A DNA stretch of 64,000 bases from Blastocatellia bacterium (lineage in GTDB: Bacteria > Acidobacteriota > Blastocatellia > UBA7656): contig CAVSKO010000002.1 in assembly GCA_963728545.1 (NCBI GenBank), forward strand, positions 1,580,477 through 1,644,476. The letters run 5' to 3'. Position 1 is the stretch's first letter. The number at the start of each line of letters is the position of its first letter. A program made the position numbers and the translations under genes. Shown here in pieces: positions 18,005 to 53,209 of this stretch. The notes beneath the pieces are model-generated. The model searched no databases. It saw only the letters and a list, made by a program, of their open reading frames with translations, and was not told the DNA's origin.

Positions 18005-18032
18005 GCGGCCTCCGCTGCATGCGCTTGTTAGG
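18005..18032 (+). repeat. 28-bp dispersed repeat CGCGGCCTCCGCTGCATGCGCTTGTTAG, copy 1
   Basis: Identical 28-mers at 18005-18032, 51582-51609 and 53182-53209, all on the same strand. Copies 1 and 2 also share GGC(C/T)ACTACCC downstream. Confidence 0.7.
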
Positions 18033-18046
18033 CCACTACCCTGTTC

Positions 18047-18631
18047 TCACTTATTACAGTCTCTCCACTCATCCAAGCGTTGAAAAAATTGCAGTGTTTC
18101 TGGTGCTGAATTCTCTTTCATATAATCCTCGAATAGCTGTTTTCGTGGGCACATTCTCTTTGCTGCGTACCAACTCAAAGGAAACCGTACGTCTTCAATT
18201 TTGACGAGTTCGGATCTCACTGCTGATTCAAGCTGACTCACCAAGAAGAATGCTTGATCAAGCCGGTCAATAATATACCTGTCCTTGTCCGTACTCTCGC
18301 TTTTTTCCAGAGCGGCATACACAGCATTAGCGTTAACTTTCTCCTTACGTCCATTTATTTCGTATTCCCGCCCTTCATCATCCCAATCCATCATCTCCAT
18401 GGCCTTCCAACCCTCATCCTCCATCATCTTGGTTACCATTTCCCTCGCCAACTCTGCTTGTTTCCAACGTAACTCTCTCGCACTTTGAACATTGCTTTGG
18501 CCGAACTGGTAAATGCCTGTGAATACAGCTATCAATCCACCGATAATGCCTACTAATCTCGCGTAAGACTCTAAACGATTTGGCTTCCCCCTTTTCTCTT
18601 GCTGCTCTTCCTCATGTTCTTCGATCATCAT
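18047..18631 (-). CDS. Hypothetical single-pass membrane protein
   Basis: 194-aa ORF with TM segment LVGIIGGLIAVFTGIY; no family recognised. Confidence 0.3.
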   Translation of the reverse strand: MMIEEHEEEQQEKRGKPNRLESYARLVGIIGGLIAVFTGIYQFGQSNVQSARELRWKQAELAREMVTKMMEDEGWKAMEMMDWDDEGREYEINGRKEKVNANAVYAALEKSESTDKDRYIIDRLDQAFFLVSQLESAVRSELVKIEDVRFPLSWYAAKRMCPRKQLFEDYMKENSAPETLQFFQRLDEWRDCNK

Positions 18632-18985
18632 AGCCTTCCTTTAGCTTGATATACTTATAATAGTACAAATCATTATTTCTCCGTCGCGGTGGCCTAACGA
18701 TTAAATAGACCTACAAATTGATGGCTGATTCTATGTATAACGGGATACGTATTCAAGCAGCCAGACGCCCACAGATAAACCGCCGATTCGGTAGGGCGCG
18801 ACTGCTTACCAACGCGGGTTATTTGACATTCACTTTTTGTAGTGTAGAATACGCTCGTTTATTCTTAGGGAAATAGATACACATATATTAAGCCGCCAGA
18901 TGTCCCGGCGGTGAGTGGGAATAAACTAGTTGCCAAAACTAGGCTCTACCCTTTAGATACAGCAGTACAGCCACTAAGACTAAGC

Positions 18986-19448
18986 CTAGTTCAAAGTCAG
19001 GAGCCGACTTAGCTTAGTCATCACTGGCCTGACGCCATCCACCACTTTGAAATGATCCAGTATCAACCGTGCGTGTTCATCTGACATCGTAGTCAGCAGC
19101 ATATTCGCAACTCGGATGAAATCGGTGATTCTCTTTTCAGACTCAGGGTTGATGATGCGAGCAAGAGCAGGCTTGTTTATATCAAGCTCGCTTTCTATCT
19201 TTCCCAGACGTGAATCAAGCGATCTCATCGGAATACCAATTAACAAATTCTGGTTTCTCGAATACAACTTTTATAATGACCTTCTCACCTCCGCACACGT
19301 CGCATATATCTTCCTGTGCTTGCCCGGTTACTCGGTCAGCAGGCCACCACACGCGGCAGTCCTGCGCTCCACGAGGCCCACAGTGGCAGTTTTCACGATC
19401 ACCTAGCCTTAGTTCAATCCGATTCAACTTAGCATTACTGCTCATCAT
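18986..19448 (-). CDS. Hypothetical zinc-ribbon protein, apparently split over two overlapping frames
   Basis: 19215-19448 encodes CHCGPRGAQDCRVWW...CDVCGG (a C..C / C..C ribbon). 18986-19267 continues in another frame. This is very tentative. Confidence 0.15.
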
Positions 19449-19908
19449 TCCTTATCGTCTCATACGCTTCCCTTATTATCTTCTCCCAATCCTACATCTC
19501 ATACTGCAAGGCTTCCAGCAGCTTGACCGCATTAACCCTCTCCTGACGCTCCCGCCAGCCCTGATTATTCTTTCTATTTGAATTACTGCTTTTCATCTCA
19601 TGAGGAAATGTGTAGTTACCCTTTCGTTTGTCTTGGGTATAGCATAAATTCATTACAGCTACTTTCAACAGAATCCATAACACAGCCTGGTAGATTTGCT
19701 TATCTGAGAGGAAATAGCGTTGCCGACATTAGTATGATACACTGCGAAACTCAGTTTCCTCTGCTGATTCAGCCAAACACTCATAGATTGCGTGGCTTCA
19801 TGCCCTTTTTCAGACAATCAGCACTGACTCTGATCTTGCCGGCGGCGGTAGCTTGCGAACACTCAATTAGCGCTTCCGGCTGTATGTATATCGCGAAGAG
19901 AGCCGGTT

Positions 19909-22440
19909 ATGAATCCCCGATATGTACCTTATCCGCTGTTGCTGCTAATTGTTGCCGCTGCTTACTTCGGCGCTGCTGAGATCGGCTTATCACAAGCCTT
20001 CCTGCACGCCAACGTCTCGCCTGTGTGGCCGCCAACCGGTTTTGCAATAGCCGCTGTCTGGTGGCTGGGTTATAGGATTTCGCCTGCAATTCTGCTTGGG
20101 GCATTCCTGGCGAATCTGGCAACCGGGGTGCCCATTGCGACAGCCGGCGGTATCGCTGTGGGCAATATGTTGGAGGCAGTCACGGCTGTCTTCTTGCTTC
20201 ACCGCTTTGTCGGACTTCGCAGCCCTTTTTATCGCGCTCAGGATGCAGCAAAGTTCGTGCTCATTGCGGGCGCGCTCAGCACTACTGTGAGCGCCACGAT
20301 TGGCAATGTAAGCCTATGCCTCGGCGGGGCCGCAGCTTGGGCTAACTTTGGCCCACTTTGGCTGACCTGGTGGTTCGGAGATGGAGTTGGCGCACTGGTG
20401 GTAGCGCCATTGCTGCTTACGTGGATTGAAAAACCCTTTGAGCACTGGCCGTTGCGCCGGTTGGCCGAGGCCGCGCTGCTACTGGTATCACTATCCGTCG
20501 TTGCCTTTATCATTTTGGGAGGAGTTTCTACCTCCAAAACCGTCAATTATTTCTTATGGCGTTTGATCTATGTATTCCTCTTGTGGGCAGCTTTCAGGTT
20601 TGGGCCGCGTGGTGTGGCTACGACAATCGCTCTGTTTTCAGGCATCGCAGTCTGGGCCACAAAACAAGGGTTCGGGCCTTTCGTAGGAGATAGTCCCAAT
20701 GAGACGCTGCTGCTTTTACAAATATTCGTGGCTTCGATTGCAATCACGTTCTTACTGTTAGCCGCTATCGTTACCGAGCGCAAGAGCGCGCAACAGATGC
20801 TGGCAGATCGCCTCCATGAAATCGAGGCGATGATGGAGGTGTTGCCAGTCGGACTATTCGTTGCGCAGGACCGCACAGGCGCTCGGATTATAGGCAATCA
20901 CGCGGCGAGGGAGTTCCTGCGGATGGAGCGCGGCGCAGACGCCAACCTCTCGTTGAGCGCGCCGCCCGACGAGCCTCCGACGCACTTCAAAGTCTTCAAA
21001 GACGGTAAGGAACTTCTGCCCGAAGAGCTTCCCTTACAACGCGCTGCCGCAGAGGGTGTCGCAGTGCGCAATCTCGAACTCGACGTATTGTTCAGCGACG
21101 GTGCCGTGAAGCACGAACTGATTAGCACTCTCCCTCTGTTCGACCGGGATGGCGCTCCTCGTGGCGCTGTCGCTTCGATGATGGACATTACCGAGCGCAA
21201 GCGGGCAGAAGAAGAACGCGAGCACTTGCTTGTGCGAGAACAGAGTATGCGCGTTGAAGCTGAGAGAACTAATCGCCTGAAAGATGAGTTTCTGGCGACT
21301 ATCTCACATGAGCTTCGCACACCGCTCAATGCAATTCTTGGGTGGTCACATCTACTGCGGGGGGCCAAAATTGATGGGGCGACGGTATCTCGCGCATTAG
21401 AAACTATTGAGCGCAACGCCAAATCTCAGGCTCAGCTAATAGAAGACCTGTTGGATGTATCGCGGATCACTTCAGGCAAGCTGCGCCTCGATATCAAACC
21501 TATTGATCTTGCATCCGTCATCAAAGCAGCAATAGATTCTGTTCAGCACGCTGCCGACGCCAAAGAGATTCAACTACAAATGATCATAGACCCCGCTGCT
21601 AGCCACATTCGGGGGGATACGGCACGACTTCAACAGGTCGTGTGGAATCTCTTATCGAATGCGATTAAGTTTACCTCAACAGGCAAGCTGGTACAGGTCA
21701 GGCTTGATCGCACAGACTCAATGGCGCAGATAACAGTGAGCGACACGGGTGAAGGCATCAGCCCTGAGTTCTTGCCTTATGTTTTTGACCGGTTCCGACA
21801 AGCCGATGGGACAATCACTAGAGGATACGGCGGGCTTGGGTTGGGGCTCGCGATCGCGCGCCACCTTGTAGAGTTGCATGGCGGGTCAATCGAAGCACAG
21901 AGCGCAGGGTTAGGACAAGGAGCCAGCTTCACCGTGAGACTCCCGCTTGTGACTGTACTAGCGACAGCGTCTTTGCCAACCGTTCAATCATCAGAGGCCA
22001 CATCACAAGAGGAAACCTTAGCCGGCCCAAGCTTATTAATTCTCTATGGCTTGCGGATATTAGCAGTTGATGATGAACCCGATATGAGAGATATGCTGAA
22101 GTTAATGCTTGAGCAATGCGGCGCTGATGTTATTACTGCCGCCTCTGCTAGAGAGGCGTTCGAGGTGCTGCCAGGATTTAAGCCAGATGTGCTGGTATGC
22201 GACATAGGGATGCCGGAAGAGGATGGCTATAGCCTGATTCGTAAAGTTAGAGCCTTGGAACCGAGGCAAGGCGGGAATACTCCTGCCATTGCGCTAACGG
22301 GGTACGTCAGAGTTGAAGAGCGAATGCAAGCACTTGAAGCAGGCTATCAAATGTTTGTGCCCAAGCCTGTAGAGGTGAATGAACTGACATCAATGATTGC
22401 GAGTCTTGTTGGAAGAATTGAAAGGGGCACGGGGATATAG
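19909..22440 (+). CDS. Hybrid sensor histidine kinase: MASE1-like membrane domain, PAS, HisKA, HATPase and a C-terminal receiver
   Basis: N-terminal multi-TM region with WPPTGFAIAAVWWLG. H-box ISHELRTPLNAILGW. G-boxes DTGEGI and GGLGLGLAI. Receiver ILAVDDEPDMRDM...LVCDIGMPEEDG...K. Confidence 0.85.
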   Translation: MNPRYVPYPLLLLIVAAAYFGAAEIGLSQAFLHANVSPVWPPTGFAIAAVWWLGYRISPAILLGAFLANLATGVPIATAGGIAVGNMLEAVTAVFLLHRFVGLRSPFYRAQDAAKFVLIAGALSTTVSATIGNVSLCLGGAAAWANFGPLWLTWWFGDGVGALVVAPLLLTWIEKPFEHWPLRRLAEAALLLVSLSVVAFIILGGVSTSKTVNYFLWRLIYVFLLWAAFRFGPRGVATTIALFSGIAVWATKQGFGPFVGDSPNETLLLLQIFVASIAITFLLLAAIVTERKSAQQMLADRLHEIEAMMEVLPVGLFVAQDRTGARIIGNHAAREFLRMERGADANLSLSAPPDEPPTHFKVFKDGKELLPEELPLQRAAAEGVAVRNLELDVLFSDGAVKHELISTLPLFDRDGAPRGAVASMMDITERKRAEEEREHLLVREQSMRVEAERTNRLKDEFLATISHELRTPLNAILGWSHLLRGAKIDGATVSRALETIERNAKSQAQLIEDLLDVSRITSGKLRLDIKPIDLASVIKAAIDSVQHAADAKEIQLQMIIDPAASHIRGDTARLQQVVWNLLSNAIKFTSTGKLVQVRLDRTDSMAQITVSDTGEGISPEFLPYVFDRFRQADGTITRGYGGLGLGLAIARHLVELHGGSIEAQSAGLGQGASFTVRLPLVTVLATASLPTVQSSEATSQEETLAGPSLLILYGLRILAVDDEPDMRDMLKLMLEQCGADVITAASAREAFEVLPGFKPDVLVCDIGMPEEDGYSLIRKVRALEPRQGGNTPAIALTGYVRVEERMQALEAGYQMFVPKPVEVNELTSMIASLVGRIERGTGI

Positions 22441-23003
22441 TCAGAAATTGCGCTTTTACAAGAAGACGAAGTGACAAAAAGACTAGTTTAAAATTATCCG
22501 GAATAACTCAAAGCGATGATCTGCAAGCACAAAGTGCTTTGATTTATGTGCTTCTTTAGAATAGACCGAATAAGGTTTCTTCACTGTAAAGGCAAATCAT
22601 ATGGGGGCAGCCGTCACAGGCGATTGGACTAGCTGCCCCGCTTTGCCCCGTCTGGCAATCTCCCTCACGGTAATCACCATCAGGGGCAAACTTCATATCT
22701 TAATAGGGATTTCTCAATTCCCTTCCCTTTGATAATCAAACCTAAAGCGAATCTCTATGAATCACGATTTACGGATGTGGTATCGTCTGGGGTTCTTTTT
22801 CATAGCAGAACAAGATTACCAGACCTCGCTCATCCGTAACTGCATTTATGCAACAAAGCCATTAGCGCGTCTAACAACCACATTCAGTGGAGCGCGCGAA
22901 GCCCACTTTGTATGACTCCATCAGTGCCGCTCGCGCGCCCACTGATACGGAGCGTTATGCCGCAAAGTATACAGTCTTCACTAAAAAGAAGAGGGTGATA
23001 GTT

Positions 23004-23609
23004 ATGTTGAATCGTTCTACCAATTTCTTACTCGTTCTCATCGCGTTAGCCCTGTGGTGCATCGCGCTTCGCGATTTGCTAACGTTTTACCCGGTGCAGG
23101 CTCAATCATCCGCCCAACAGACATTCAGAGACAACGAGGAGTTAAAGCGTCTTTCGGATGAGGACCAGGCTGACCGCACCCCTCCAAGCGGGAAGGCTAT
23201 CGATTGGGCGGTCGTCGGCCCGCGTGACAGGGCGCGCTTAAAGCGGGTGAAGGAACTATACTCGCAGAACCTTTTACAAACCGCTAATGATTACGACCGC
23301 GCTGCTCTGATTCTTCAACACGGCGACGTGCCGGAAGATTTTCTGCTGGCGCACGAGTTCTGGGTGGTGGCCCTCGTCAAGGGCAAGAACGATCAGGATA
23401 CTAGGTCATTAGCAGCAGCCAGCGAAGACCGCTTCCTGATGAAGATAGGGCGCCCACAGCGCTTCGGAACGCAGCTCCACTCGATAGACGGCGGACCTAT
23501 CCAGCTTTATCCAGTCGACCCTGGGGTCACCGATGAATTGCGGCGCGTGATGGGGGTCCGTTCATTGTCAGAGATTAAAGCAAAGGTGACTGAAATGAAC
23601 AAGAAGTGA
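23004..23609 (+). CDS. Hypothetical secreted or membrane-anchored protein
   Basis: GAGGGTG RBS with the ATG at 23004. N-terminal hydrophobic segment LLVLIALALWCIAL. Confidence 0.35.
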   Translation: MLNRSTNFLLVLIALALWCIALRDLLTFYPVQAQSSAQQTFRDNEELKRLSDEDQADRTPPSGKAIDWAVVGPRDRARLKRVKELYSQNLLQTANDYDRAALILQHGDVPEDFLLAHEFWVVALVKGKNDQDTRSLAAASEDRFLMKIGRPQRFGTQLHSIDGGPIQLYPVDPGVTDELRRVMGVRSLSEIKAKVTEMNKK

Positions 23610-23929
23610 TTGTCCGGGCGGCATCACACGCGCATGCAGCGGAGGCCGCGTGCGCGAGTCTCGTATGAACCAGTGAGTGCCGCTCGCGGCCCCGCTGATG
23701 CGCGTGACCGGGCCAGATCGGATTGCCCCCCAGGCAAGCCCAAAACTTCTTCCAGACGTCAGCCAGGCTTGATGGACCACACCCGCTGCGGTAACACGTA
23801 CCGGCATTGAACCAGGGCTGCACGAACAGGTTGGACCCGTAGTCGTGCGCTGAATAAACCAGTTTGTTTTCGACGGGCGGACCTAGCGAGGTGGTGTCCC
23901 CGCCCTCCCTCTCTCTGCCGTATGCAGTG

Positions 23930-32687: not shown

Positions 32688-35600
32688 ATTCCGGCGACAG
32701 CGCACGGTCCCTATTCCTTATTTGTATTCTGTCGCCAGCCTTGATCTTCTTGCCCGCCTTCTTGCCAATCAACCTTGTCGCCGGGCTCTGTCCATCGTTG
32801 CTGGTCTTCTGCTCTATCCCATTAATTATTATTACAGCCTTCTCACCAAAGTCCTCCCCGGAAATGAGTAACTTCTTGCCGCTGACCGTCGCGCTTATGA
32901 TTTTAGGCGTGCTGCTAAAGTACCGCAGTAGGGCGAAATCCCGGCCTCTATTTGCATTGCCTGTAAATGTCTGTCCACCCACTACGATCTTACCGTCATC
33001 TTGGATAGCAATGGCCTGAGCATGTAAGTGTTCAGACTACCGATTTTTGTGCGGTCAAAATCTTCCGGCAGGATTCATAAAGATCGAGTTCCAGCAATCG
33101 CCACGTCCCAAATAGTGATGCCAATATGCTCTTGGTTTCACTCCCCTTTGCGGATCGTGTGCCTCCGCTTATCTTGCGACTCACTACTGGTTCTCGCAGA
33201 CTTCGTTCCGCTGCGTTGTTATCTGCCGGCACTCGCGGGTCGGTCACGAACATAAACAATTCTGGCAGGAATCGCTCTATCCTCTCACAAAGCCTGCTCA
33301 TTGCTTGCTTCTTCTTCAAGTGCGGCTTGCACAACGCAAGCAATTCTTGCTCATACTTGCGCTGTGCTTTCACCCGCTCTGCTTTCTGATCTACTGGTCC
33401 TAGTCGCCGGTTCGGTCCCTTATATGCCTTTGCCCGATCATATACATCTTTCACTGCTTGTGCCCACCACTGCACACTTTCATCCTTTTCGTGCTCCCGC
33501 TTCAACTCTCGCACATCGCGCAACAAGTGAGTCCAGCATCGCTGGTGTGCCCCCTTGTGTACGTTGTAGCCAGCATAGAAATCCGTCACCAGAACGCCAT
33601 CGAACTCCTCGCCCAGCACCTCTTTGACTACTGTTTGAGAGCGCGTCTTTCGATAGAGGAAATATCTCACCGAAGGTGTTGAGAAACTCCATAAGTATCC
33701 GTTTCGCCCGTCCTCTCGCCACCCTGTCTCATCTCCGTTTACTACAGGAGAGCCACGTATTTTATTGCCTAATGCTTCGTAATCTGATTTCCCTCGTTCT
33801 GCCACTCCACGAACCAGTCCCACCAACTCGCCCGTGCTTAAAGCTAATGCCCATCGTCGTCTGAGGTAATCTTGAATGACTCTGAAAGGCAAACGGCACT
33901 GCTCACGCAAGACCGTCACTTCGCTTTGTACAGATATGCCGAAGCGTTGCTTTCCAACTACCATTGCTGAGAAGTCAACTTCGGGTGCCCAGCTTTGGTG
34001 GCACTGCGGGCAAGTCCTCTCGACTACTATATGTTCTACCACCTCTACTGAGGTTGGTGGCAACTCGATGACTCGGCGCACAGTGCCAACCCGTCCACCA
34101 CTTAAAGCGATATTACATAGCGCACATTGCTCAAAGGCATGATGGACTCGTCGGGTGACTTTATCGAGTGGCCGAGCGTATCCTTTGTTGCGTTTCTTGC
34201 GCGGCTTCTTCTCACGTTCCCGGCGATTGGCTTTTACAAAGGAAGGGGGATTGTTATTAGCTGATTGCTGACGCAGTCGCTCATTTTCGGCTTCCAACTC
34301 TTTGTTACGTTCTTCCAAGGTTTGCAAACGGATCAGGAGTTGTAAGACGAATTCTTTCAATTCGTCACGATTCGCGTTTTCCAGATCCACATTCACAGTT
34401 GAAGTCTACAACCTTTGTCAACAGCCGGTTGCTGCGCCCAACGCTCACCTCGGATTCTCGTCTGAGAACCGAAGTCTGAACACTTACCTGAGCATCTTGA
34501 AATAGCCCGGACAAAGTGGTAGCAATTATGCCGTCGGAGCCGAACGTAGTGTTGAGGCTGCCTTCCGAATTGTAACGCGCCAGCGCAAATCTCGATTCGA
34601 AGGCTATACCTTCGTTAATTGTCTTCCCGGCCACTACGATCTTTCCATCGAACTGGATCGCGGCAGCGAAACCTAGATCCGTACTGCTAAATCGCCCATC
34701 AACATTCTTGAAGAGGTCACTACTGACCTTCCCCTCGGAGCCGAACGTAGTGTTGAGGCTTCCGTTCCTGTTGTACCGGGCCAGGGCGAAGTCCTTGCGT
34801 TCGAAAAGATTCTCGGCATACCCTGCTAAAACAATTCTCTCATCCGGCTGTATCATCATGCTGAAGGCGAAATCTTCTCTGCCAAAGAAGTCAGTAGTGA
34901 CCAAACCGCCGGAACCAAAACTGGAGTCCAGGCTGCCATCGCTGCGGTAGCGAGCAACGGCGAAATCAGTTGACGTGAGGGTGTTGGGGTTGTTTACCCG
35001 CCCTGCTACAACAATCCTCCTGTTAGAATCTATGGCGATTGCATGGATCGACTGGCCGCTGCCAAAGAAGTTAGTAACAACCTTACCGCCGGAGCCGAAC
35101 GTAGTGTTGAGGCTTCCGTCCGGGTTAAAACGGGCAAGGGCAAACCTCGCAAAACTCTGTCCGGCGACGACGATCTTGCCATCAGGCTGGATGGCGACAC
35201 TCGTAGCTATTTCAGGGAGTCCGCCGAAATCAGCAATGGCCGCGCCATTGGAGCCAAAAGTGGAATCAAAACTCCCATCGGGGTTGTAGCGTGCAACAAC
35301 GAAATCATTGCCTGTTGCGTCATTAAATATCCGCCCGGCAACGACGATCTTGCCATCGGGCTGGAGGGCCACAGCGTAAGGTTCGGTCAAAGTATTAAGG
35401 AACCTGATATTGACCTTGCCGCCGGAGCCAAAACTGAAGTCGGGCGCGCTATCAGTGTTGTAGCGCGCGAGCGCAAAATTCCCTGTCCCAAACCCTACCG
35501 CAATAATCTTACCGTCGGGTTGGATGGCTAGGGCCTTAAGTTCATCACCGTTGTTGAAGTCAGTATTGACCAGACCTCTATCACCGAAAGTGAAATCAAG

Positions 35601-35750
35601 ATCACCACCAGCAGCTTGCACAAGATTTTGCTGAGGCCAGCATAAAAGTAAGAAAAGAGTCAATACAAGAAGCAGCCGCGATATTCGCGCTACAGTGATA
35701 AGAAAGCGCCAGCGCTGAAATAATGATTTGCTCATATGATTCTTCACCAT
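32671..35750 (-). pseudogene. Delta-60-repeat beta-propeller protein gene, interrupted by IS66-A (N-part 35750->34496, C-part 33015->32671)
   Basis: The N-part carries repeated D(G)SLD.SFGSGG.V and FALARY motifs. Removing the IS and one copy of the 8-bp duplication restores the frame: ...GLFQDAQ|AIAIQDDGKIVVGGQTFTGNANRGRDFALLRY... Confidence 0.6.
33024..34487 (-). mobile_element. IS66-family element A (single transposase ORF 33032-34396) with a perfect 8-bp target duplication CTGAGCAT
   Basis: Ends GTAAGTGTTCAGACT / AGTCTGAACACTTAC (GTAA... termini). CTGAGCAT sits at 33016-33023 and 34488-34495. The transposase has GYLWSF and CWTHLLRD (IS66 TnpC-like). Confidence 0.75.
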
Positions 35751-35824: not shown

Positions 35825-37267
35825 GTAACTGTTCAGACTCTGATGCGGGGATGAGGCTTGGGCTAGTTGACAACGGGTGTAAACTTCGTGCGTGATGCTC
35901 GACCTCCAACAGGCCACCCGCGAAGAACTGATCCATCTCAACTTGCAGTTGGTCGCTCAACTTCAACTCTTACAAGAGCGCGTCAAGCAATTGGAAGCAG
36001 AATTAGAGTCTTTGCGCGGCGGTGGCTCCAAAAGCAATCCTCCAAGCTTCGTTAAGGCAAACCGCCCTGTTCGTAGTAAGAAAAAGAAGCGCAAGAAACG
36101 TGCGCACGGCTTCGCACGCAAGCTTGATGCTGCTACTGCGCGTGTCGAGCACTCCCTTGAGCAATGCCCACAGTGTCAGGTATCGCTCAGGGGGCGACGA
36201 GTGATCAAGTCTCGCCAGGTTATTGAGCTTCCACCAGTTCAAGCCCAGGTCGTAGAGCACATCCTTATAGAGCGTGGTTGCCCGAACTGCCACAAGCGGT
36301 GGGCACCACCGATGGATTTATCAACAGTAGCTGTAGGCTCTCAGCGTTTCGGTATCAGTGTGCAAGCTGAGGTGACGCTACTGCGTGAGCAATGCAGGCT
36401 TCCTTTTAGAGTTATACAAGACTATCTCCGCCACAGATTCGGCCTCAGAATAAGTGTCGGCAAGTTGGTAGCTTTAGTTGAGGGGGTGGCCCGAAGTGGC
36501 AAAGCGATAGTGGAAGGTTTCAAGCAGCAGATTCGGGGTTCTCCCGTAGTAAATGGGGATGAAACGAGTTGGCGAGAAGATGGGCTAAACGGGTATGTGT
36601 GGAGTTTCTCGACCGACAAGATTAGGTACTACATTTACCGCAAGAGTCGTTCGGCAACAGTAGTGAAAGAAGTCTTGGGCGAGGAGTTCGATGGTGTTTT
36701 AGTGAGTGATTTCTATGGCGGGTACAACGCGCATTTGGGGCTACATCAGCGATGCTGGATACACCTGCTGAGAGATATACACGAACTGAAGGAAAAGCAT
36801 GCCGATGACAGGAAGTTGAAGAAGTGGGCACAAGCAGTCAAAGCAATCTATGAGGGAGCAAAGCAGTATAAGGGGCCAAGCGCGAGGCTCGATGCGGTAG
36901 AGCAGAAACAGCAGCGAGTAAAGCGGCAGCGAGAGTATGAGCAAGAGTTGATGAGAGTGTGCCGACCGCACCTAAAGAAGAAGAGACTACAGAGCAGGCT
37001 TTGCGAAAGAATAGAGCGGTTCCTACCAGAATTGTTTATGTTTGTGGCAGACGCAAGAGTGCCCTCAGACAATAATGCAGCAGAGCGGAGTGTGAGACAT
37101 CTAGTGGTGAGTCGCAAGATCAGCGGAGGGACGAGGTCGGAGAAAGGAAGTGAGACCAAGAGTATACTGGCATCACTGTTCGGCACATGGAGACTGCGAC
37201 AGGTCAATTTCTATCAATCCTGTCTGGATTTACTTACAGCAAACAATCCGACACTCTGAACAGTTAC
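35825..37267 (+). mobile_element. IS66-family element B (transposase 35892-37259, about 60% aa identical to A) with a perfect 8-bp target duplication ATTGAAGA
   Basis: Ends GTAACTGTTCAGA / TCTGAACAGTTAC. ATTGAAGA sits at 35817-35824 and 37268-37275. The transposase has GYVWSF and CWIHLLRD. Confidence 0.75.
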
Positions 37268-37448
37268 ATTGAAGAATATAACTCAAATTACGTTATCAGG
37301 CGCCACCTCAACCGCCGCGAGCCGGGAGCGAGTTGCGCGCCCATTATCTTGCATTCAACCGGCGCGCAAAAAGCTCAAACGGATCATTTCCGCTATCTTT
37401 GTTTTCAATCTCGAATAAAATTAAATCGGTGGACCGAAGGAGAATGCT

Positions 37449-40235: not shown

Positions 40236-40439
40236 TGAGGCCTTATACCACTTGGCAAGCTTAAAGTAGTAATGCGTTCCGATCCCCGCGACTTTTCAGG
40301 ACGATAAAAGAAGATTCCCTAGACGCTTGGAAACAAAGGCGAGCAGGAAAGGGGCATGAAAGAGAAGCTACCGCGGGCTCGGGTTGAATAACTTGTTGGG
40401 CGCGGCGTGGTGGGCAATATAGCGCCTGGCAATTTATAC

Positions 40440-41882
<1,443 letters not shown>

Positions 41883-42204: not shown

Positions 42205-42807
42205 TTGTCTTATGAAGACGCTATGACGACACCTTCTGCAAATGAAGTCACTAAGCTGCTACTGGATTGGGGCAACGGTGATAAAGCTGCGCTGGACAAA
42301 TTATTTCCGGCGGTCTATCAGGAATTGCGGCGGCTGGCCCGTAACTATATGCGGAGAGAACGGGCGGAGCACACGCTTCAAACTTCGGCGCTGGTCAACG
42401 AGGCGTATCTTCGGCTGGTTGATTACAAGCAAGTGCGCTGGCAGAATCGCGCGCACTTTTATGCGGTAGCCGCACAGGCGATGCGCCGGATACTTGTTGA
42501 CTACGCGCGCGCTCATCGGGCAGCCAAGCGAGGAGCAGGCGGGCAGAAGGTATCATTGGATGAAGCGGCGATAATATCAGAGGAACGGGCTGAGGAGTTG
42601 CTGGCGTTGGATAATGCGCTAAGCAGGCTTGAGCAGTTGGATGAGCGGAAGTGCCGCATAGTGGAGATGCGATACATAAGCGGGCTGAGCGTGGAAGAGG
42701 TGGCAGAGGTGGTCGGCATTTCTGCGCGCACGGTGGAGCGCGAGTGGAGGGCGGCCAAAGCCTGGCTATACCGTGAGATCAGCAAGGGGAGCCGCGATGA
42801 AGCGTGA
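42205..42807 (+). CDS. ECF-type RNA polymerase sigma factor (TIGR02999-like)
   Basis: LLDWGNGDKAALDKLFPAVYQELRRLA...ALVNEAYLRLVD (region 2) and a region-4 HTH (ISGLSVEEVAEVVGISARTVEREW). Confidence 0.8.
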   Translation: MSYEDAMTTPSANEVTKLLLDWGNGDKAALDKLFPAVYQELRRLARNYMRRERAEHTLQTSALVNEAYLRLVDYKQVRWQNRAHFYAVAAQAMRRILVDYARAHRAAKRGAGGQKVSLDEAAIISEERAEELLALDNALSRLEQLDERKCRIVEMRYISGLSVEEVAEVVGISARTVEREWRAAKAWLYREISKGSRDEA

Positions 42808-45625
42808 ACGCTATCAGCAAGTTGATGAGGTGTTTCAAGCCGCGCTTGATTGCGACCCGACAGAGCGCGCAGCCTTCCTCGATCATGCCTGCAAGGGCGA
42901 CCTGGCTCTGCGCAACGAAGTCGAGTCTCTAATCAAATCGCACGAGCAAGCCCATAGCTTCATGCTATCTCCTATGCTTGAGCAGAGCATGGAAATACTT
43001 ACGAACGATGTAGTCCAATCCGTGGTGGGCCGCCTCATCGGACCATACAAGATCATACGCGAAATCGGCCATGGCGGAATGGGGACGGTCTACCTGGGCA
43101 TGCGCGCAGACGACCAGTACAAGAAGCGTGTCGCCATCAAGCTGGTCCGTCGCGGCATGGACACGGACAACATCCTCAGCCGCTTCCGCCACGAACGGCA
43201 GATACTTGCAAGCCTCGATCATCCCAACATCGCGCGGCTGCTTGAAGGCGGTACTACTGAAGATGGCTTGTCATACTTCGTGATGGAATACATCGAAGGG
43301 CAGACCATTGATGAGTATTGCGACGCGCAGAAGCTTTCGACTCATGAACGGTTGAATCTGTTTCGCACGGTTTGCTCGGCTGTTCATTACGCTCATCAGA
43401 GCCTGGTCGTACACCGCGACATCAAGCCTTCTAACATTCTGGTCACGGCTGGAGGCATTCCGAAGCTTCTGGACTTCGGCATCGCGAAGCTGCTCAGGCC
43501 AGAGATGTATGCGCAAACGATTGCGCCGACCGAGACTATGGTTCGCCCTATGACGCCCGACTATGCAAGCCCCGAACAGGTCAGAGGTCAGCCCATCACG
43601 ACTGCAAGCGATGTTTATTCACTGGGAGTGCTGCTCTACGAATTGCTGACGGGCCATCGCCCGTATCGGCTCAAGAACTCGTTGCCGCATGAGATTGAGC
43701 AAATCATCTGCGAGCAGGAGCCTGAAAGGCCCAGCACTGCAGTCAAACGCACCGAGGAAGTGCCAAGCTCGACGGGCGCGGGCAAGATCACACTGACGCC
43801 TGAGCTTGTAAGCAAAACACGGGAGGGTCAGCCTGACAAGCTGCGCCGACGGCTCGCGGGCGACCTCGACAATATAGTGCTGATGGCGATGCGCAAGGAG
43901 CCGCGTCGGCGCTTCGGCTCGGCCGAGCAGTTTTCCGAAGACATCCGTCGCCATCTTGAGGGACTGCCGGTAAAGGCGCGCAAAGACACATTCCCGTATC
44001 GCGCGTCGAAATTCATCCGGCGTCACAAGGCTGCGGTTGTTATCGCAGCGGCGTTTCTGATTCTCGTCTTCAGTTTCGTCGCCGTGACGATCAGTCAATC
44101 CATTCGAGCGAATCGAGAGCGAGAGAAAGCCGAGCGCGTCGCGGCATTCCTGGTGGAGTTGTTTCAAGTCTCAGACCCGAGTCAATCGAAAGGCAGCGAG
44201 ATAAAAGCGCGAGAGATTTTAGACAAAGGTGCGGAGCGAATTGAAAAAGAACTCGGCGATCAACCCGAAGTGGAAGCGAAATTGTTGGAGACGGTCGGGA
44301 CGGTGTACCGGACGCTTGATTTGTACAAGGAAGCCCGCCCGCTGCTCGAAAAATCTCTGGCAATCCGGCGCGGTTTGTTTGGCGAAGAGAATTTGGAGGT
44401 GGCGCAAAGCGAAAGAGAACTCGGATTTGTATACGAGCGTCAGGGCGAGATTGCGAAGGCGATTGAGTTATTTCGTCAATCGCTCGCCACGCGACGAAAA
44501 CTCTTACCTTCGCAGCACAAAGATATTGCCCAAACCATTAGCGACCTCGCCACAACTTTAGGTCAGTTAAGGCAGGCGAAGGAAGATGAAGAGGCCCTGC
44601 CGCTGTTTTATGAAGCGTTGAATATGCGCCGCAAGCTGTTCGGCAACGAACACGAGGACGTGGCGCAAAGCCTGAATAACTTCGCGCTGTTTTTGCAAGA
44701 AAGAGGCGACTACGCGGCAGCCGAGCCAATGTTGCGAGAGGCTATAGCGATTGACCGCAAAATCTATGATGGCGATGATCCCGCTTTTGCCACAAATCTG
44801 AATAACCTGGCCTTAGTGCTGAGTAACAAGGGCGACCAGGCGGGCGCAGAACAGTTTTACCGCGAATCGCTTCAGATGAACCGGAGATTGTTCGGCGCGG
44901 ATAGTTTCGGATTGGTCATCTCGTTGAACAATCTCGCAGAGGTGTTGCGCGAAGAAGAAAAGTTCGACGAGGCGGAACCGCTCTACCGCGAAGCTCTGGC
45001 AATCGCTCAAAAGCGCGTCGGAAAAGAGCATCCTTATTTTGCAATCTTCACAAATAATCTGGCGAGATTGCTGCACGACAAAGGCGACCTCGCCGCTGCG
45101 GAATCGCTTTACCGGGAGGCGCAGACGATGTACCGCAAAGCTTTCGGCGACGAGCATCCGCGCACAGCGAAAAATCTCGATAACCTTGCGGCATTGCAGT
45201 ACGACAAAGGCGACCGCACGGCGGCGGAAGCTATGTATCGCAACGCGCTTGAGATTCAACGAAAGAAATTGCCGAAAGATCATAAGGACATTGCACTGTC
45301 GCTCGTCGGGTTGGGCAAAGTTATAGTCAGCAAAGGCAAGGCGCAAGAGGCAGAATCGTTGCTGCGTGAAGGGCTTGAAATCTGCCGCAGCAAGTTGCTC
45401 AAAGAGCACCCTGCTATCGGCGACGCAGCCATCGCGCTCGGCAATTGTTTGACCGCGCTCGGAAAATATGACGAAGCCGAAGCCCTGCTTCTTGAAGGTT
45501 ACGAAATAAGCAAAGCCAAACGCGGCGATCAAGACAAACAAACCAGGCTCGCGCTGGCTCGCTTAATTAACCTCTACAAAGTTTGGGACAAGCCAGACAA
45601 GCTCGCCCTTTATCGCGACAAGTGA
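42797..45625 (+). CDS. Ser/Thr protein kinase with one TM segment and a long C-terminal TPR region. It overlaps the sigma-factor stop by 11 nt.
   Basis: Kinase motifs GHGGMGTVY, VAIK, HRDIKPSNIL, DFGIAK. TM segment AAVVIAAAFLILVFSFVAV. Many TPR-like repeats (LNNLA.L....G....AE.LYREAL). Confidence 0.8.
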   Translation: MKRERYQQVDEVFQAALDCDPTERAAFLDHACKGDLALRNEVESLIKSHEQAHSFMLSPMLEQSMEILTNDVVQSVVGRLIGPYKIIREIGHGGMGTVYLGMRADDQYKKRVAIKLVRRGMDTDNILSRFRHERQILASLDHPNIARLLEGGTTEDGLSYFVMEYIEGQTIDEYCDAQKLSTHERLNLFRTVCSAVHYAHQSLVVHRDIKPSNILVTAGGIPKLLDFGIAKLLRPEMYAQTIAPTETMVRPMTPDYASPEQVRGQPITTASDVYSLGVLLYELLTGHRPYRLKNSLPHEIEQIICEQEPERPSTAVKRTEEVPSSTGAGKITLTPELVSKTREGQPDKLRRRLAGDLDNIVLMAMRKEPRRRFGSAEQFSEDIRRHLEGLPVKARKDTFPYRASKFIRRHKAAVVIAAAFLILVFSFVAVTISQSIRANREREKAERVAAFLVELFQVSDPSQSKGSEIKAREILDKGAERIEKELGDQPEVEAKLLETVGTVYRTLDLYKEARPLLEKSLAIRRGLFGEENLEVAQSERELGFVYERQGEIAKAIELFRQSLATRRKLLPSQHKDIAQTISDLATTLGQLRQAKEDEEALPLFYEALNMRRKLFGNEHEDVAQSLNNFALFLQERGDYAAAEPMLREAIAIDRKIYDGDDPAFATNLNNLALVLSNKGDQAGAEQFYRESLQMNRRLFGADSFGLVISLNNLAEVLREEEKFDEAEPLYREALAIAQKRVGKEHPYFAIFTNNLARLLHDKGDLAAAESLYREAQTMYRKAFGDEHPRTAKNLDNLAALQYDKGDRTAAEAMYRNALEIQRKKLPKDHKDIALSLVGLGKVIVSKGKAQEAESLLREGLEICRSKLLKEHPAIGDAAIALGNCLTALGKYDEAEALLLEGYEISKAKRGDQDKQTRLALARLINLYKVWDKPDKLALYRDK

Positions 45626-45745
45626 CTTGAGCAGGGCCTCAAGCTCGGCCTAACACGCCTATTCATCTCAGCCGGCGCGTGACCCTAAGGCTAACAATAG
45701 CAGAGATGGGATTTCCATCTCTGCTATTGTACGCCACCTTGGAAG

Positions 45746-48010: not shown

Positions 48011-48593
48011 TTCAATTCCTCCTTACGTTAAGCCCCATCAAGGTTTGGAGTACTGGTTTGATGAGGCGCAAAAACCAACGTCAATCAGAGCATGCTAGAG
48101 GCTCAAACTTGCTCAGCTTCTGATCAAGTTCAGGCCCTTCTTAGTGCCCTTAATTACTAAAGCGCAATTAGAGCCTGAAACCCGACATGCCCATGTCCGC
48201 ATTTTTTAGGAACTCTGAGAGGACTTTCACGGAAAAGACAAGAAGCTTTCGAATAGGGAGGTCAAGGCAATCAAGTTGATGAGGCGGGCCTTGAGTGTGA
48301 CACCGCCCAACTTTGGATGAGGATTGCGGCAATCTTTCTTAATTAAATCGATTGCAACTCTAACGGTCCTTTACGCATGTCTTGATTGCAAGCCAGGATT
48401 CCAGATCGGCAAGAAATTCAAAACTTGCTATTGAATCAATTTTACCTTTGGCATATTATAGGCCGCGTCCGATTCCACTGGGATCATCAGTCGCTCAAAT
48501 TCCTCTTTACCTGACATCCCAATCTGGTTAACTGCTTCGCAACTAGATATCCCTGGTCCCTGGCCCCGGATACCTCACTTAGGAGGTTACAAA

Positions 48594-50624
48594 ATGAGAA
48601 CTCGAAGAGATGCAAAGAGATTAGTGTTTCTAGTGTTGATTGTAATATGTCTTACGGTCTGTTCGACTATGTGGCTGAAATTGACGCCCGTGCGCGCCCA
48701 ATCTTCAACAGCCGATAGACTGCGAGAGGCCCGAGCGGCATTAGTGCAGGCCCAATCGAAAGAGAAATTTCTTAAAACCAAAAAAGCCGGTCATACTGCG
48801 GAAGCAATTCTAAGGGAATACAATGCAGCAGTCGAGGCGCGCGTTGCAGAGCTATTTGCAAGAGTGAAAGTACTCAGCGAATTAATGGGAGAAAATACAA
48901 CTTCTCCATTTGATGTTCGAGGCGAGAAGGGTAAAGCAAAAGAGAAAGGGCCGGACCCGGCGCTGGCCTCAGAGTACGAGGCTTTGCAATCCGAGCTTGC
49001 TGCTATCAACCCTGAGCCTTTATCTCCAGGGAACATAAATGCCCTGATGGAAAGTGAGCCGAACAACACGTTTGCGACTGCCAACCCACTCGGCCTGGAC
49101 GCTAACAATTGCCGCGTGGCTACAGGCGCGATCACTGCGGGCGACATAGATATTTGGTCATTCACGGCCCCCGCAGGCTCCAGAGTATGGGCCTATGTAG
49201 ATACGGGCGGAGGCCAATCTTCACCTGCAAATGACCGGGATACGTTCTTGACCCTTTTCAATTTTTCAACTCTCGAAGAGGATGATGATGACGGAACCGG
49301 CAACGGCTGTGACTCAGGCACCGAAACCGGTTTTTCCTCAACCATATCAGGCAGGTCGCTCGCGCTTGCAGGGACATACTTCCTTATCGTAGAAGGGTTC
49401 GACCCGTCAAGCGTTGCTAACCCGTACAGGCTGTTTGTCGTCGTAACGACAGGAGCCGGCTCTGCGGAAGTCGAGCCGAACAACACGGCTGCGACAGCAA
49501 ACCCGGGATTGGTGAGCGGAAATGTCGTGGTTAAGACCGGCTCGATCACGCCCGCCGGGGACGCGGATTTCTTCACGATAGTGGCGAATGCCGACGATGT
49601 CTTTTACATCAGCGGAGACGGCAACCCTGAGCGCGATGCGACGAACACGGACCTGGTCTTAGATATAACCCACCCAGATGGAAGGACCCTGATGCAGCCC
49701 CCCGCCGACAGCGGGATTGGCGGCAGCGCTACCAATCCCGAAGGCGAAAGCTTCTGTATAGCAACGCCGATGGACGGAATATACACTGTGAGTGTTTCTG
49801 GTTTTGGCACCTCGACCGGCACGTATGGTTTGATGGTTGCTAGGTGTAGCGCAAAATCTGTATGCCCCGTGACAATGTTTACGGGAGTACTCGGTCTAAA
49901 CAGCACGGAATATCCCGGCGTAAGCGGCACACAGAATGGTCGCCTCAATCGCTTCATAGATCAGACCGGCGCGTGCAACAACATCAGGACGTGTCCGGGC
50001 CTATTTACAATCGTGGGCGCTCGACCGTTTGATGCTTACTCGTTCACAAATGCGAGTGCTAACACAGTCTGTGTCACTGTAGATGTTGACGCTCAGGCTT
50101 GCGTAGGCAACAATTTCCTTGTAGTCGCCGCCTACCTGGGTTCTTATAATTCGGGCAACCAGTGTCTGAACTATCTGGCAGACATTGGCGGTAGCCCGAA
50201 TCCGGTCGGGTCGTTTTCGTTAAACGTTCAAGCGGGAACAATTTTCACGCTGGTTATCATTGCGGCGAACGCAAGCCCGACAGTCTGCACCACACCTTAC
50301 AAAGTGACGGTCGTCGGTTTGCCGACTTTCTCAAGAACCATAAGGGATGACACTACCGGCAACACGCTGCTATTCGACCCGCTCACTGGTAATTACAAGT
50401 TCACCTCTTGTTCAACCGGAATGATGGTGACCGGAACTGGCGGAGCATTTATGCCCCCCGGCTGCACCCTGTTCTTTGGGGGAGGCGGACCAAGCAGCAC
50501 TGTTTCTGCGATGATAGATCTTTGTACTGGCGTGGGCAGCGCGACGATAACTATCCCCTCGACGCCTCCACCTGTTAGCCTCAGCGATAGCAACGTCAAT
50601 AACAACACCTGCTTCTGCCCTTGA
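48594..50624 (+). CDS. Secreted protein with two pre-peptidase C-terminal (PPC)-like domains
   Basis: GGAGG RBS, signal peptide. EPNNTFATANPL...DIDIWSF.APAGSRVWAYVDTGG and EVEPNNTAATANPG...GDADFFTIVANADDVFYISGDGN. Confidence 0.5.
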   Translation: MRTRRDAKRLVFLVLIVICLTVCSTMWLKLTPVRAQSSTADRLREARAALVQAQSKEKFLKTKKAGHTAEAILREYNAAVEARVAELFARVKVLSELMGENTTSPFDVRGEKGKAKEKGPDPALASEYEALQSELAAINPEPLSPGNINALMESEPNNTFATANPLGLDANNCRVATGAITAGDIDIWSFTAPAGSRVWAYVDTGGGQSSPANDRDTFLTLFNFSTLEEDDDDGTGNGCDSGTETGFSSTISGRSLALAGTYFLIVEGFDPSSVANPYRLFVVVTTGAGSAEVEPNNTAATANPGLVSGNVVVKTGSITPAGDADFFTIVANADDVFYISGDGNPERDATNTDLVLDITHPDGRTLMQPPADSGIGGSATNPEGESFCIATPMDGIYTVSVSGFGTSTGTYGLMVARCSAKSVCPVTMFTGVLGLNSTEYPGVSGTQNGRLNRFIDQTGACNNIRTCPGLFTIVGARPFDAYSFTNASANTVCVTVDVDAQACVGNNFLVVAAYLGSYNSGNQCLNYLADIGGSPNPVGSFSLNVQAGTIFTLVIIAANASPTVCTTPYKVTVVGLPTFSRTIRDDTTGNTLLFDPLTGNYKFTSCSTGMMVTGTGGAFMPPGCTLFFGGGGPSSTVSAMIDLCTGVGSATITIPSTPPPVSLSDSNVNNNTCFCP

Positions 50625-51581
50625 GTTGAGGCTTAAGGTGTTGGAGCAGGCATGAAATGCATGTGGACCTGATAGCATTCGGTCTATACAAAGGCGACTT
50701 TGTTTATTTCGCCGGTAACGAGGAACCGGACCTCAAGCTAGACAGCTTGATCGAAGTCGCAAAGGAGAAATAACCATACGGGGCCGTGAGTGTGACGCGG
50801 CTCTATGTTTTATAATCGGAATTAACAGAGATGAATGTGCGATTTGTAGCATTAAACCAGATGACGCACCTGGGAATGCCTCAAAGCCCAACCATCTAAT
50901 GATACTTTGATCTGGGTGTATTCTTTGGCTGAATTACACGGCAACTTCGCTCTCAGTACATAGTTGATTCATCCGCTTTACCAAACGAGCTTGCTTGCTT
51001 GCAGCAAATCTGTTTATGAATACTGAATCGCGAGTCATCCAGCGCGAAACATCTGATGGTTTCACTCCAACAACGAGCGCCGTATACCTGACGCTACAAC
51101 CTGAAGCGAGCAGCGCAATGGCATTAACTTGTTCAACTGAGAGCATCTTTCCAATCTTTTTGTTCATATTCAATGCCTAGCCCGGTTTCAATTATTAATT
51201 GATGTGTTGCACCCATTCGGACACTTCCAGTAGCCTTTCGGCAACCTCAACCCTTTTGGCTTTATGGCCCAGGTCTTTGCACACCTTGAGCATCTGAGCG
51301 TCAATAATTCTGATTTAACAAGCTTGACTCCTACCTTCTTGAGCTGGTTGTTAGATGGTTCGTGAGGTATCAACATTGCAGTCCTTAATCTGAACCCCTC
51401 TATCGAGTAATATGTATAATATGAGCTTGATTCCCCTTATTCCTTTTTCAATAAGGCGCGAACGAAATGAGTTTCAAAAACATGCTTTCAATGTACACCG
51501 CCGCCTGGTCTTCCTGTGCGGGCTAACGGTTCGCATCAGCGGGGCCGTGAGCTGCGCTGATGTTTTATGCGAAACTCGCGC

Positions 51582-51609
51582 ACGCGGCCTCCGCTGCATG
51601 CGCTTGTTA
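51582..51609 (+). repeat. 28-bp dispersed repeat, copy 2
   Basis: See copy 1. The upstream GGGGCCGTGAG..ATGTTTTAT segment also recurs at about 50787-50830. Confidence 0.7.
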
Positions 51610-51642
51610 GATTGCGTCTTGGCTACTACCCGCTGTCGTTTA

Positions 51643-52893
51643 TCAATCCAGCAACCGAGAAAGCCAGTGTATTGTGTTGAGTGCCAATTGCCTATTGTCT
51701 GTGTTTGGATAATTCATTCCAAACGCGCGGCCTTTATTATCTATCTGTGCTGTTAGCATACCCGCTTCGCCCAAGACTATTACTCTACCTTTCCCATACT
51801 TCATTGCAATACCCTGCGCGCGACCAGCAGCAGAAACCGTCGTTTTATTTGGCGGGAAAGTATCAACCGCAGTATCAGGAAGCTTCAGCAATGCCACGCT
51901 GTCTTTGGGTCCATTAAGTGATTGTCCGGTGAACGTAACTACACGGCTGACTCGCTCACGCGAATCTTGACCGCGTGTAATCGCATGGTCGGCGAGAAGC
52001 TTGTTGTCGCGCGAGAATAGAATGTCCCCCAGCTCTTTATCTTGGCTGGATGGATCATCCGTATACCCTTTACTCATACCCACACCGAATCGCTTTGCTA
52101 GAATCTCAGCCGCCGCACCCATCGGGGCGTGATCGGCGATGAAAAGCAATGATCCGCCCGCGCGAACCCAATCGCGCACAGTATCAGATTCTTCATCAGT
52201 AAAGGCTGGACTGGTACGCTGCCCGCGAGGCCCCGCCGCATTGACGATCACAAGTATCTCATATTCAGTGAGCGTACTCTGCTGAAACTTCTCTTTGTTG
52301 GGAACAACGACGTAGCCGTCATTTGTGATGAGGTCAACAAACGGCTTGTAAAGACCGGATGCCGTGTGGACATTGTTATGAGCCTCGTCAAAAAGCACTT
52401 TGGGATGTTTCTTAGTATATGCGGGGTTGGAAACTCGCGCGTCGAAGTTCGGGTCGGCTTGCTGCGCTGGAATAATTTGCGCGCTGAAAGTTCCTTTCCA
52501 CATACCAACTAAATCACGCACGGTAGCAGATTCAGATCGAGTTAGACTCCATGTGCCTGTTGCGATCCTTTGACTTTTTTCTAATACCTCAAGCGTACCG
52601 CCAAGTTTGTTATCAGCCAGTTTCCCGACAAAGCGCACCTCCGCGCCGCCGATTTCTGTCGAGAAAGATATATCGCTGTCGCCCACTCTGATATTTCGCA
52701 CGGGATTTGAGAACTCCTGTCCGGCGGCATTGAATTTAGCTTCGGCTTTCCACTCTGTCGCTTCACGAGCCAATGTTAATTCCATTTTGACTGACGAGAA
52801 AGGCGACTGACCGAAGCCGGAAGTCACTGCTGTGAAAACCAGAGTAAAAAGAACTAAAACGGTAGAGAATAAAAGATTGAAATTCTTACGCAT
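51643..52893 (-). CDS. Secreted hypothetical protein (DUF4350-like; class-I glutamine-amidotransferase-like fold suspected)
   Basis: Signal peptide. KVLFDEAHNN...ILVIVNAAGP...GGSLLFIADHAPMGAA...RVIVLGEAGMLTAQ. Confidence 0.3.
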   Translation of the reverse strand: MRKNFNLLFSTVLVLFTLVFTAVTSGFGQSPFSSVKMELTLAREATEWKAEAKFNAAGQEFSNPVRNIRVGDSDISFSTEIGGAEVRFVGKLADNKLGGTLEVLEKSQRIATGTWSLTRSESATVRDLVGMWKGTFSAQIIPAQQADPNFDARVSNPAYTKKHPKVLFDEAHNNVHTASGLYKPFVDLITNDGYVVVPNKEKFQQSTLTEYEILVIVNAAGPRGQRTSPAFTDEESDTVRDWVRAGGSLLFIADHAPMGAAAEILAKRFGVGMSKGYTDDPSSQDKELGDILFSRDNKLLADHAITRGQDSRERVSRVVTFTGQSLNGPKDSVALLKLPDTAVDTFPPNKTTVSAAGRAQGIAMKYGKGRVIVLGEAGMLTAQIDNKGRAFGMNYPNTDNRQLALNTIHWLSRLLD

Positions 52894-53181
52894 GGATGCA
52901 CCTCATTTTAAACTCACCTGCGAATTTCACCGTGGCACTTGGTGTCGCCAGGTTAGCAATAATAGTAAGGCAAGGTGCCTCCTGCCAATTGAACTAACAC
53001 TTATAGCTTATCGGGGCATAGCTGCATCGTCAAACCTCGCCGCTGGAATTAGCGCAGTGCGAAAAAGGGCAACATGCAAATAAGTTGAAATCGCGCAAGA
53101 GTATAAGATTACCTGCGTCCAGTTTTAACGAAAGCAATCTAACGCGCGCATTGTGTTGATGGAATAATACGAAATCCGTTT

Positions 53182-53209
53182 CGCGGCCTCCGCTGCATGC
53201 GCTTGTTAG
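53182..53209 (+). repeat. 28-bp dispersed repeat, copy 3
   Basis: See copy 1. Copies 2 and 3 bracket the DUF4350-like gene. Confidence 0.7.

Follow-up and report, generated by a model that had tools for sequence, protein, structure and literature searches.

A repeated 28-mer of a Blastocatellia bacterium as a probable arm of integron attC sites

In established integron biology, the attC recombination site folds, is bound by the integrase IntI and is cleaved, and gene cassettes are thereby excised or inserted. Canonical attC sites are 57-141 nt long and carry RYYYAAC/GTTRRRY outer boxes and an inner L stem with extrahelical bases on the bottom-strand R''-L'' arm, the two separated by an unpaired central spacer, as well as a variable loop; the open reading frame (ORF) of the cassette precedes the site on the top strand, and G/TT of the R' box is the point of crossover. 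The present work concerns a 28-nt sequence that recurs within 64 kb of DNA from a soil bacterium of the Blastocatellia (GenBank assembly GCA_963728545.1, contig CAVSKO010000002.1, positions 1,580,477 to 1,644,476; this whole stretch is referred to here as the window). An earlier note, made from the sequence alone, had described three copies of it. It is very probable that the 28-mer represents the R''-L'' arm, in bottom-strand reading, of a ~90-nt attC family belonging to chromosomal integrons of Blastocatellia. The identification draws on the anatomy of the element, its strand asymmetry and covariation, the arrays that it forms, its link to IntI in a related genome, and duplicated segments that end at the predicted crossover.

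Compared with attCaadA7 and the Vibrio cholerae repeats (59-base elements), the Blastocatellia family shows the same R''/R' boxes, 4-5 nt spacer, L stem, two extrahelical bases and variable loop. It also shares with known attC sites a length (~90 nt) within the 57-141 nt range, an ORF upstream on the top strand, one-directional arrays and a divergent intI. The second extrahelical bottom-strand base is G in attCaadA7, whereas it is C in this family, and one site of the window, attC-C, departs from the canonical form in having CAC/GTG for AAC/GTT. A blastn search against 72,556 plasmids returned no match and thus no likeness to plasmid-borne attCs, and Rfam had no match in the window.

For Acidobacteria, a covariance model of attC has been built from 120 chromosomal sites (Ghaly et al. 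2021, Commun Biol, PMC8352920). As far as the consensus given there extends, its top-strand layout is the same as that of the family described here (R'' GCCUAAC of 7 bp, 5-nt spacer, 3-bp L box, bulged g, 5 bp, unpaired GA), and the sizes are similar, with a consensus length (CLEN) of 106 versus 107 for our model with flanks. When compared by consensus and layout, however, the inner stems differ, reading GUU-g-AAGCg in the published model and CAT-G-CAGCGG in the window family. Judged from these sequences, the Blastocatellia sites may form a distinct sub-family or may be a minority among the 120 training sites, and this sequence sub-family may not have been described individually before.

The 28-mer and the hairpin to which it belongs

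The exact 28-mer CGCGGCCTCCGCTGCATGCGCTTGTTAG occurs three times in the window, always on the plus strand, at 18004-18031, 51583-51610 and 53182-53209, and no match to it was found in 100 dinucleotide-preserving shuffles. The three identical direct copies of the earlier note are therefore real; its coordinates were right for the third copy and off by one base for each of the first two, and copies 2 and 3 are spaced by 1599 bp instead of exactly 1600 bp. The AT-rich setting that it reported was also recovered, with a G+C content of 0.45-0.49 per kb around the sites versus 0.58-0.60 at the window ends. What had been overlooked is a fourth copy with three mismatches on the minus strand (23623-23650), a diverged fifth copy at 22864-22970 (minus strand), and the nature of the 28-mer as a hairpin arm. 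Its partner arm lies 50-60 nt upstream, and the whole constitutes an imperfect palindrome, or hairpin, of about 90 nt. In copy 2, for instance, the sequence about 55 nt upstream, CTAACGGTTCGCATCAGCGGGGCCGTG, is an imperfect reverse complement of the 28-mer, and the minus-strand copy at 23.6 kb aligns with copy 2 across ~85 nt. As had been noticed, the motif GGC(C/T)ACTACCC stands downstream of both copy 1 and copy 2, its position differing by 11 nt; since it is confined to these two copies and absent elsewhere among 123 attC-family flanks, it was rejected as a part of the element.

By scanning one genome per species with a 21-nt core, 27 loci were obtained, nearly all from metagenome-assembled genomes (MAGs) of Blastocatellia or Pyrinomonadaceae, with 11 of them on a single 2.9-Mb contig. 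Core matches in L001, L002 and L020 were discarded as attCs, being partial and placed inside unrelated sequence. The family consensus reads GYCTAAC-(4-5 nt)-GCAT-CAGCGG-GGCCGCG...loop...CGCGGCC-T-CCGCTG-C-ATGC-GCTT-GTTAGRC. A covariance model (CM) built from 26 copies, with 107 positions including flanks, detected five sites in the window and ~130 further sites in the fetched loci.

Per-column counts show that the outer boxes GYCTAAC/GTTAGRC fit RYYYAAC/GTTRRRY. Among 104 copies that the search pattern had not selected, AAC and GTT are present in 98-100%, and the 28-mer arm carries single-base bulges, T in 100% and C in 84%. Both arms are about equally conserved in these copies, the 28-mer arm being no more so than its partner; therefore, the perfect identity of the 28-mer within the window reflects only recent common origin. 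Between the GCAT/ATGC inner stem and CTAAC/GTTAG, one arm has 5 nt and the other 4 nt, and the fold shows an internal loop at this position. When attC-D and attC-C (listed below) are folded as single-stranded DNA, an outer CTAAC/GTTAG stem of 5-7 bp is followed by the internal loop, a long stem with the C and T bulges, and a variable loop; intact copies fold at -25 to -35 kcal/mol (z -4.1 to -4.7). In an alignment that was fitted to the CM and includes ~22 reverse-strand rows, 94.6% of cells are paired, compared with 30-39% when partners are slid, and double changes occur in 20 of the 24 pairs. The CM also distinguishes sharply between the two strands, scoring 93 versus 23 bits for attC-D, 82 versus 28 for attC-C and 71 versus 18 for attC-B.

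Sites and cassettes of the window

The attC sites of the window are as follows, the strand given being the top strand.

17952-18033, minus: attC-A (copy 1), a lone site with a perfect 28-mer arm; R'' GTTAGGC at 18027-18033
22869-22960, plus: attC-B, new and diverged; R'' GTCTAAC at 22869-22875, R' GTTATGC at 22954-22960, predicted crossover G22954/T22955
23621-23710, plus: attC-C, stem intact; contains the fourth 28-mer copy (23623-23650, minus strand); predicted crossover 23704/23705
50770-50812, minus: probable attC remnant; ATAAC, then CGGGGCCGTGAG...ATGTTTTAT, corresponding to the bottom-strand 5' arm and loop, without the 28-mer arm
51522-51612, minus (plus being the folding bottom strand): attC-D (copy 2), intact; 28-mer at 51583-51610, R' CTAAC at 51523-51527, R'' GTTAGAT at 51606-51612, predicted crossover A51526/C51527
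53137-53211, minus: attC-E (copy 3); R' ATCTAAC at 53137-53143, R'' GTTAGAC at 53205-53211, predicted crossover A53142/C53143

Boxes of the RYYYAAC/GTTRRRY type are carried by attC-D, attC-E and attC-B. The first of these is the best-scoring site, with 93.4 bits on the plus strand (match 51511-51617) versus 22.8 on the minus strand, and folds at -29.6 kcal/mol (z = -4.7). The diverged attC-B shows compensatory changes, CAGTGG/CCACTG and GCGCGCG/CGCGCGC, reaches 71.2 bits on the minus (bottom) strand (22864-22970, E = 8e-22) and folds at -25.3 kcal/mol (z = -4.2). Going by their sequences, attC-B and attC-D would still be competent. For attC-C the CM gives 82.1 bits (23616-23723, minus strand) and the fold -34.8 kcal/mol (z = -4.65). 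Its R boxes are CAC/GTG in place of the otherwise invariant AAC/GTT, a compensatory change that alters the predicted cleavage triplet and by which the site may be impaired.

In attC-E, the 28-mer arm is whole and the partner arm has lost ~18 nt (CAGCGGGGCCGCG...); the CM score is 45.6 bits (53113-53216, plus strand), numerous inner-stem positions being unpaired, the fold is not significant (z = -1.3), and the site is probably recombination-defective. The partner arm of attC-A is degenerate (ATTTAAG-AGCAGGGGCGCGG) and lacks a canonical R' box, its CM score is 22.6 bits (17929-18038, plus strand), and the fold, again not significant, leaves the arms unpaired (z = -1.0); this site is probably a disabled relic like attC-E. 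The same variant arm recurs in L026. The remnant was seen by local alignment to attC-D, and the CM gave no hit there with E <= 10; its stretch 50778-50812 matches CGGGGCCGTGAG...ATGTTTTAT of copy 2 and accounts for the recurrence near 50787 that had been pointed out previously.

Judged by the bulges, the bottom strand is the plus strand in copies 1-3, and cassette genes are therefore expected on the minus strand, ending just before the site. The predicted strand holds for every window ORF adjoining a site, and the cassettes and their ORFs are listed below.

18047-18631, minus: ORF of 194 aa, ending 14 nt before attC-A; the ORF of the cassette terminated by attC-A
22955-23704, plus: gene cassette of 750 bp, between the crossovers of attC-B and attC-C
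23004-23609, plus: ORF of ~201 aa from the ATG at 23004, which comes after GAGGGTGA; ends before attC-C; weak DUF6624 match
50934-51173, minus: ORF of 79 aa between attC-D and the remnant; weak HTH_38 match
51527-53142, minus: gene cassette of 1616 bp, from the predicted crossover of attC-E to that of attC-D
51643-52893, minus: ORF of 416 aa, the only one of the 1616-bp cassette; ends 31 nt before attC-D
53542-53946, minus: ORF of 134 aa, upstream of attC-E on the top strand; presumed ORF of the attC-E cassette

The 416-aa protein shows weak DUF4350 / IFT52-GIFT similarity, so that the DUF4350-like gene reported between copies 2 and 3 proves to be the gene of the cassette bounded by attC-E and attC-D. 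The 79-aa ORF possibly lies within a third cassette (50774-51526). The far boundary of the cassette ended by attC-E was not found in the window, and the CM search of the window detected no attC beside the small co-oriented ORFs at 53.9-55.8 kb. No family match was obtained for the 194-aa ORF, and the cassette ORFs of the window have no homologues in the fetched arrays.

Following established integron biology, the bottom strand of these sites would form a hairpin in which an unpaired central spacer separates the R-box stem from an L-box stem that carries extrahelical bases and ends in a variable loop. IntI, a tyrosine recombinase, would bind the hairpin and cleave the A/C junction of the 5' RYYYAA/C box, which would permit both excision (attC x attC) and insertion (attC x attI) of ORF-plus-attC cassettes. 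By their sequence features, the window sites would be substrates that IntI recombines.

Clusters of attC sites lacking an integrase (CALINs) were named in 2016 (PMC4889954), with a definition that is quoted in PMC7923331. Because no integrase is present in the 64-kb window, its clusters are CALINs in the sense of that quoted definition, accompanied by a single orphan site: there are two 2-site CALINs in opposite orientations (22869-23710 on the plus strand; 51522-53211 on the minus strand, plus the remnant at 50770) and the lone degenerate attC-A at 18 kb. Each cluster consists of two co-oriented sites, 0.75 and 1.6 kb apart, respectively. They differ from described CALINs in being minimal and in that some sites are damaged, as well as by the orphan. 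A complete integron, with intI, attI and array at one locus, is not found in the window, which contains no intI.

Arrays and an integrase gene in related genomes

In the related loci, the sites form arrays with the regular organization of integron cassettes. Same-strand intervals between sites (n = 103, L003-L027) have a median spacing of 587 bp and usually contain one ORF on the predicted strand; of those with a longest ORF of 80 aa or more, 68 have this ORF on the predicted top strand and 8 have it on the opposite one. The polarity predicted from the bulges thus agrees with ORF orientation (68 vs 8), and it also agrees with the divergent intI gene described below. Sites are co-oriented within each locus with one exception, L007, where truncated attCs at 4072-4145 (plus) and 4235-4308 (minus) point towards one another and the array changes direction, marking an inversion junction. 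Duplicated segments (at least 95% identity) within the arrays have 35 of 114 ends no more than 10 nt from the predicted AA/C crossover, compared with ~3.6% expected.

An integrase gene adjoins the family in L011, in which six attCs on the plus strand are followed by an intI gene on the same strand at 4733-5675; gene and cassettes diverge, which is the arrangement of a canonical integron. Against TIGR02249 ('integron integrase') the gene scores 98 + 44 + 216 bits (358 summed) across three frames, which cover positions 1-306 of the 315 in the profile. Its identity to IntI1 is 47-54%, and its closest relatives in the database carry the label integron integrase. It lies 140 nt past the first cassette ORF, and a candidate ATCTAAC box is found at ~4546-4552. 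Its two frameshifts presumably make it a pseudogene, if they are not an assembly error. An intact integrase beside an attC of exactly this family was not found: family attCs are absent from L108 and L109, and L110 shows one weak match (28 bits) in the same geometry. A tyrosine-recombinase fragment in L021 was rejected as IntI, being generic rather than IntI-specific.

Several further observations were made on the arrays. On CAVSDJ010000007.1, a Blastocatellia MAG contig, family attC arrays occupy at least four chromosomal regions: 448-488 kb (L005, L023, L010, L007), 624-648 kb (L003, L004), 2200-2312 kb (L009, L019, L016, L017) and 2736 kb (L027). A contiguous 24 kb at 464-488 kb contains 29 sites, and the cassette complement of this contig may be very large. 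A second, low-scoring attC subtype of ~110 nt occurs in the arrays of L019, L023, L009, L016, L017, L010 and L005 (e.g., L019 3526-3636, 3833-3943 and 6867-6975). The distance to the next site is often 250-310 bp, without an intervening ORF of at least 30 aa, and such intervals may be ORF-less cassettes. Full attCs with the exact 21-nt core are also present in MAGs labelled Bacteroidota and gp2 Acidobacteria (L014 6043-6141 and L022 3472-3572), which could result from inter-lineage cassette transfer or from mis-binning.

Targeting of attC is typical of the IS1111-attC group. This group of IS110-family insertion sequences (ISs) was reportedly treated by Tetu and Holmes in 2008. Similarly, an IS110-family element of 1.8 kb starts inside an attC at three places in the related MAG (L003 3851-5666, L010 5944-7759, L027 3076-4885). 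Its copies are 98.7-98.8% identical and encode a 464-aa transposase (DEDD_Tnp_IS110 + Transposase_20). Such an element is absent from the window.

Origin and mobility of the window sites

The earlier note had suggested att-like sites of a small mobile cassette, and the elements do have the features of integron attC sites. The 28-mer also lies inside a longer known repeat family, an outcome that the note had set against its proposal with an IS end as its example; the family is attC and not an IS end. A recombinase, for which it had advised a search, adjoins the family in L011 as the tyrosine recombinase gene intI, and none is present in the window.

Several points weigh against the assignment to attC. 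The window contains neither an integron integrase nor attI: a tblastn search with IntI1 gave a best E of 2.6, and Pfam scans of the window ORFs returned only transposases of IS3 and IS66 and no integron integrase. The only integrase gene found adjoining this exact attC family bears two frameshifts. Of the three perfect 28-mers, two belong to sites with a deleted or degenerate partner arm, attC-C lacks the otherwise invariant AAC/GTT triplets, and the covariation was measured on an alignment fitted to the model itself. Strain-level gain or loss of cassettes did not emerge from protein look-ups or from a metagenome scan with the histidine kinase that neighbours the cassettes. Neither the cassette protein nor this kinase had an exact match on record, and the scan yielded mainly paralogues; its best match, a fragment (L029) that is 77% identical, is similar only as far as the kinase gene extends and contains no attC.

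The strongest alternative, to which we attach a probability somewhat short of even, takes the window sites as true attCs by origin, all of which are now immobile fossils that were scattered by IS rearrangement or left behind after integrase loss. The missing IntI, the damaged partner arms of attC-A and attC-E, the remnant at 50770-50812 and the CAC/GTG boxes of attC-C all accord with such a history; IS3 and IS66 copies lie nearby and could have scattered fragments of an array, and the L011 intI is itself frameshifted. On the other hand, attC-D and attC-B are structurally intact and high-scoring, the perfect identity of the 28-mer points to a recent origin, and an integrase could act in trans from another part of the genome.

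A more active history would be insertion outside attI by an integrase, a process reported previously (bioRxiv 10.1101/2022.09.11.507474). The clusters are small and opposed, and they lie far from any integrase beside ordinary genes (a hybrid histidine kinase and a glycosyltransferase). We regard it as unlikely that they arose in this way and that attC-C is functional; if true, a functional attC-C would mean that the IntI of Blastocatellia tolerates a changed cleavage triplet.

It is very improbable that the hairpin serves mainly as a regulatory or terminator RNA motif downstream of genes. Each site does form a stable hairpin 10-330 nt downstream of an ORF, on its sense strand. However, no T-run follows the hairpin on either strand, no Rfam match exists in the window, and neither the conserved outer AAC/GTT boxes nor the single-base bulges on one strand are terminator features; the arrays and the association with IntI would also be left unexplained. 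The dispersed regulatory motif that had been offered as an alternative to att-like sites consequently receives no support.

Least credible of all is an origin unrelated to integrons, as palindromes resembling repetitive extragenic palindromic (REP) sequences, bacterial interspersed mosaic elements (BIMEs) or miniature inverted-repeat transposable elements (MITEs) and spread by RAYT or another transposase, since such dispersed intergenic imperfect palindromes, which the window does show in both orientations, would not account for the attC-type RYYYAAC/GTTRRRY boxes, the spacer and the strand-specific conserved bulges, the one-directional arrays elsewhere with usually one ORF per unit on the predicted strand, or the integron-integrase gene adjoining them in canonical divergent geometry, and no RAYT/Y1 transposase gene is present among the window ORFs scanned.

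Apart from the attC sites, the window contains several other repeats. A perfect inverted repeat of 1244 nt (10423-11666 / 13803-15046) corresponds to two IS3-family copies with HTH_Tnp_1 and rve ORFs; the 2.1 kb between them hold a third IS3-like gene pair (12294-13444, minus) and an ORF with a CarboxypepD_reg domain, and the region may be a composite transposon or the product of nested insertions. Two inverted IS66-family transposase genes (33022-34396 and 35892-37269) are ~70-73% identical and enclose an ORF (34365-35750, minus) with internal repeats of ~175-200 nt. Near both edges of the low-GC part, inverted paralogous stretches (6986-7216 and 9598-9967, plus; 54277-55316, minus; 71-82% identical) encode small proteins with N-terminal hydrophobic segments, and no attC was found beside these stretches. 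Finally, five tandem 126-nt units at 44676-45248, 62-74% identical to the reference unit, lie inside a 950-aa ORF (42773-45625) and look, by their sequence, like TPR-like protein repeats rather than a DNA element.

Taken as attC sites of Blastocatellia chromosomal integrons, these elements completely explain the repeat, and five genes of the window can be labelled as integron cassette genes, accessory and potentially mobile. The understanding of integrons is unchanged, as this kind of element is already well understood. The work also provides a specific CM for the Blastocatellia attC family, useful for assigning cassettes from soil metagenomes to their host lineage.

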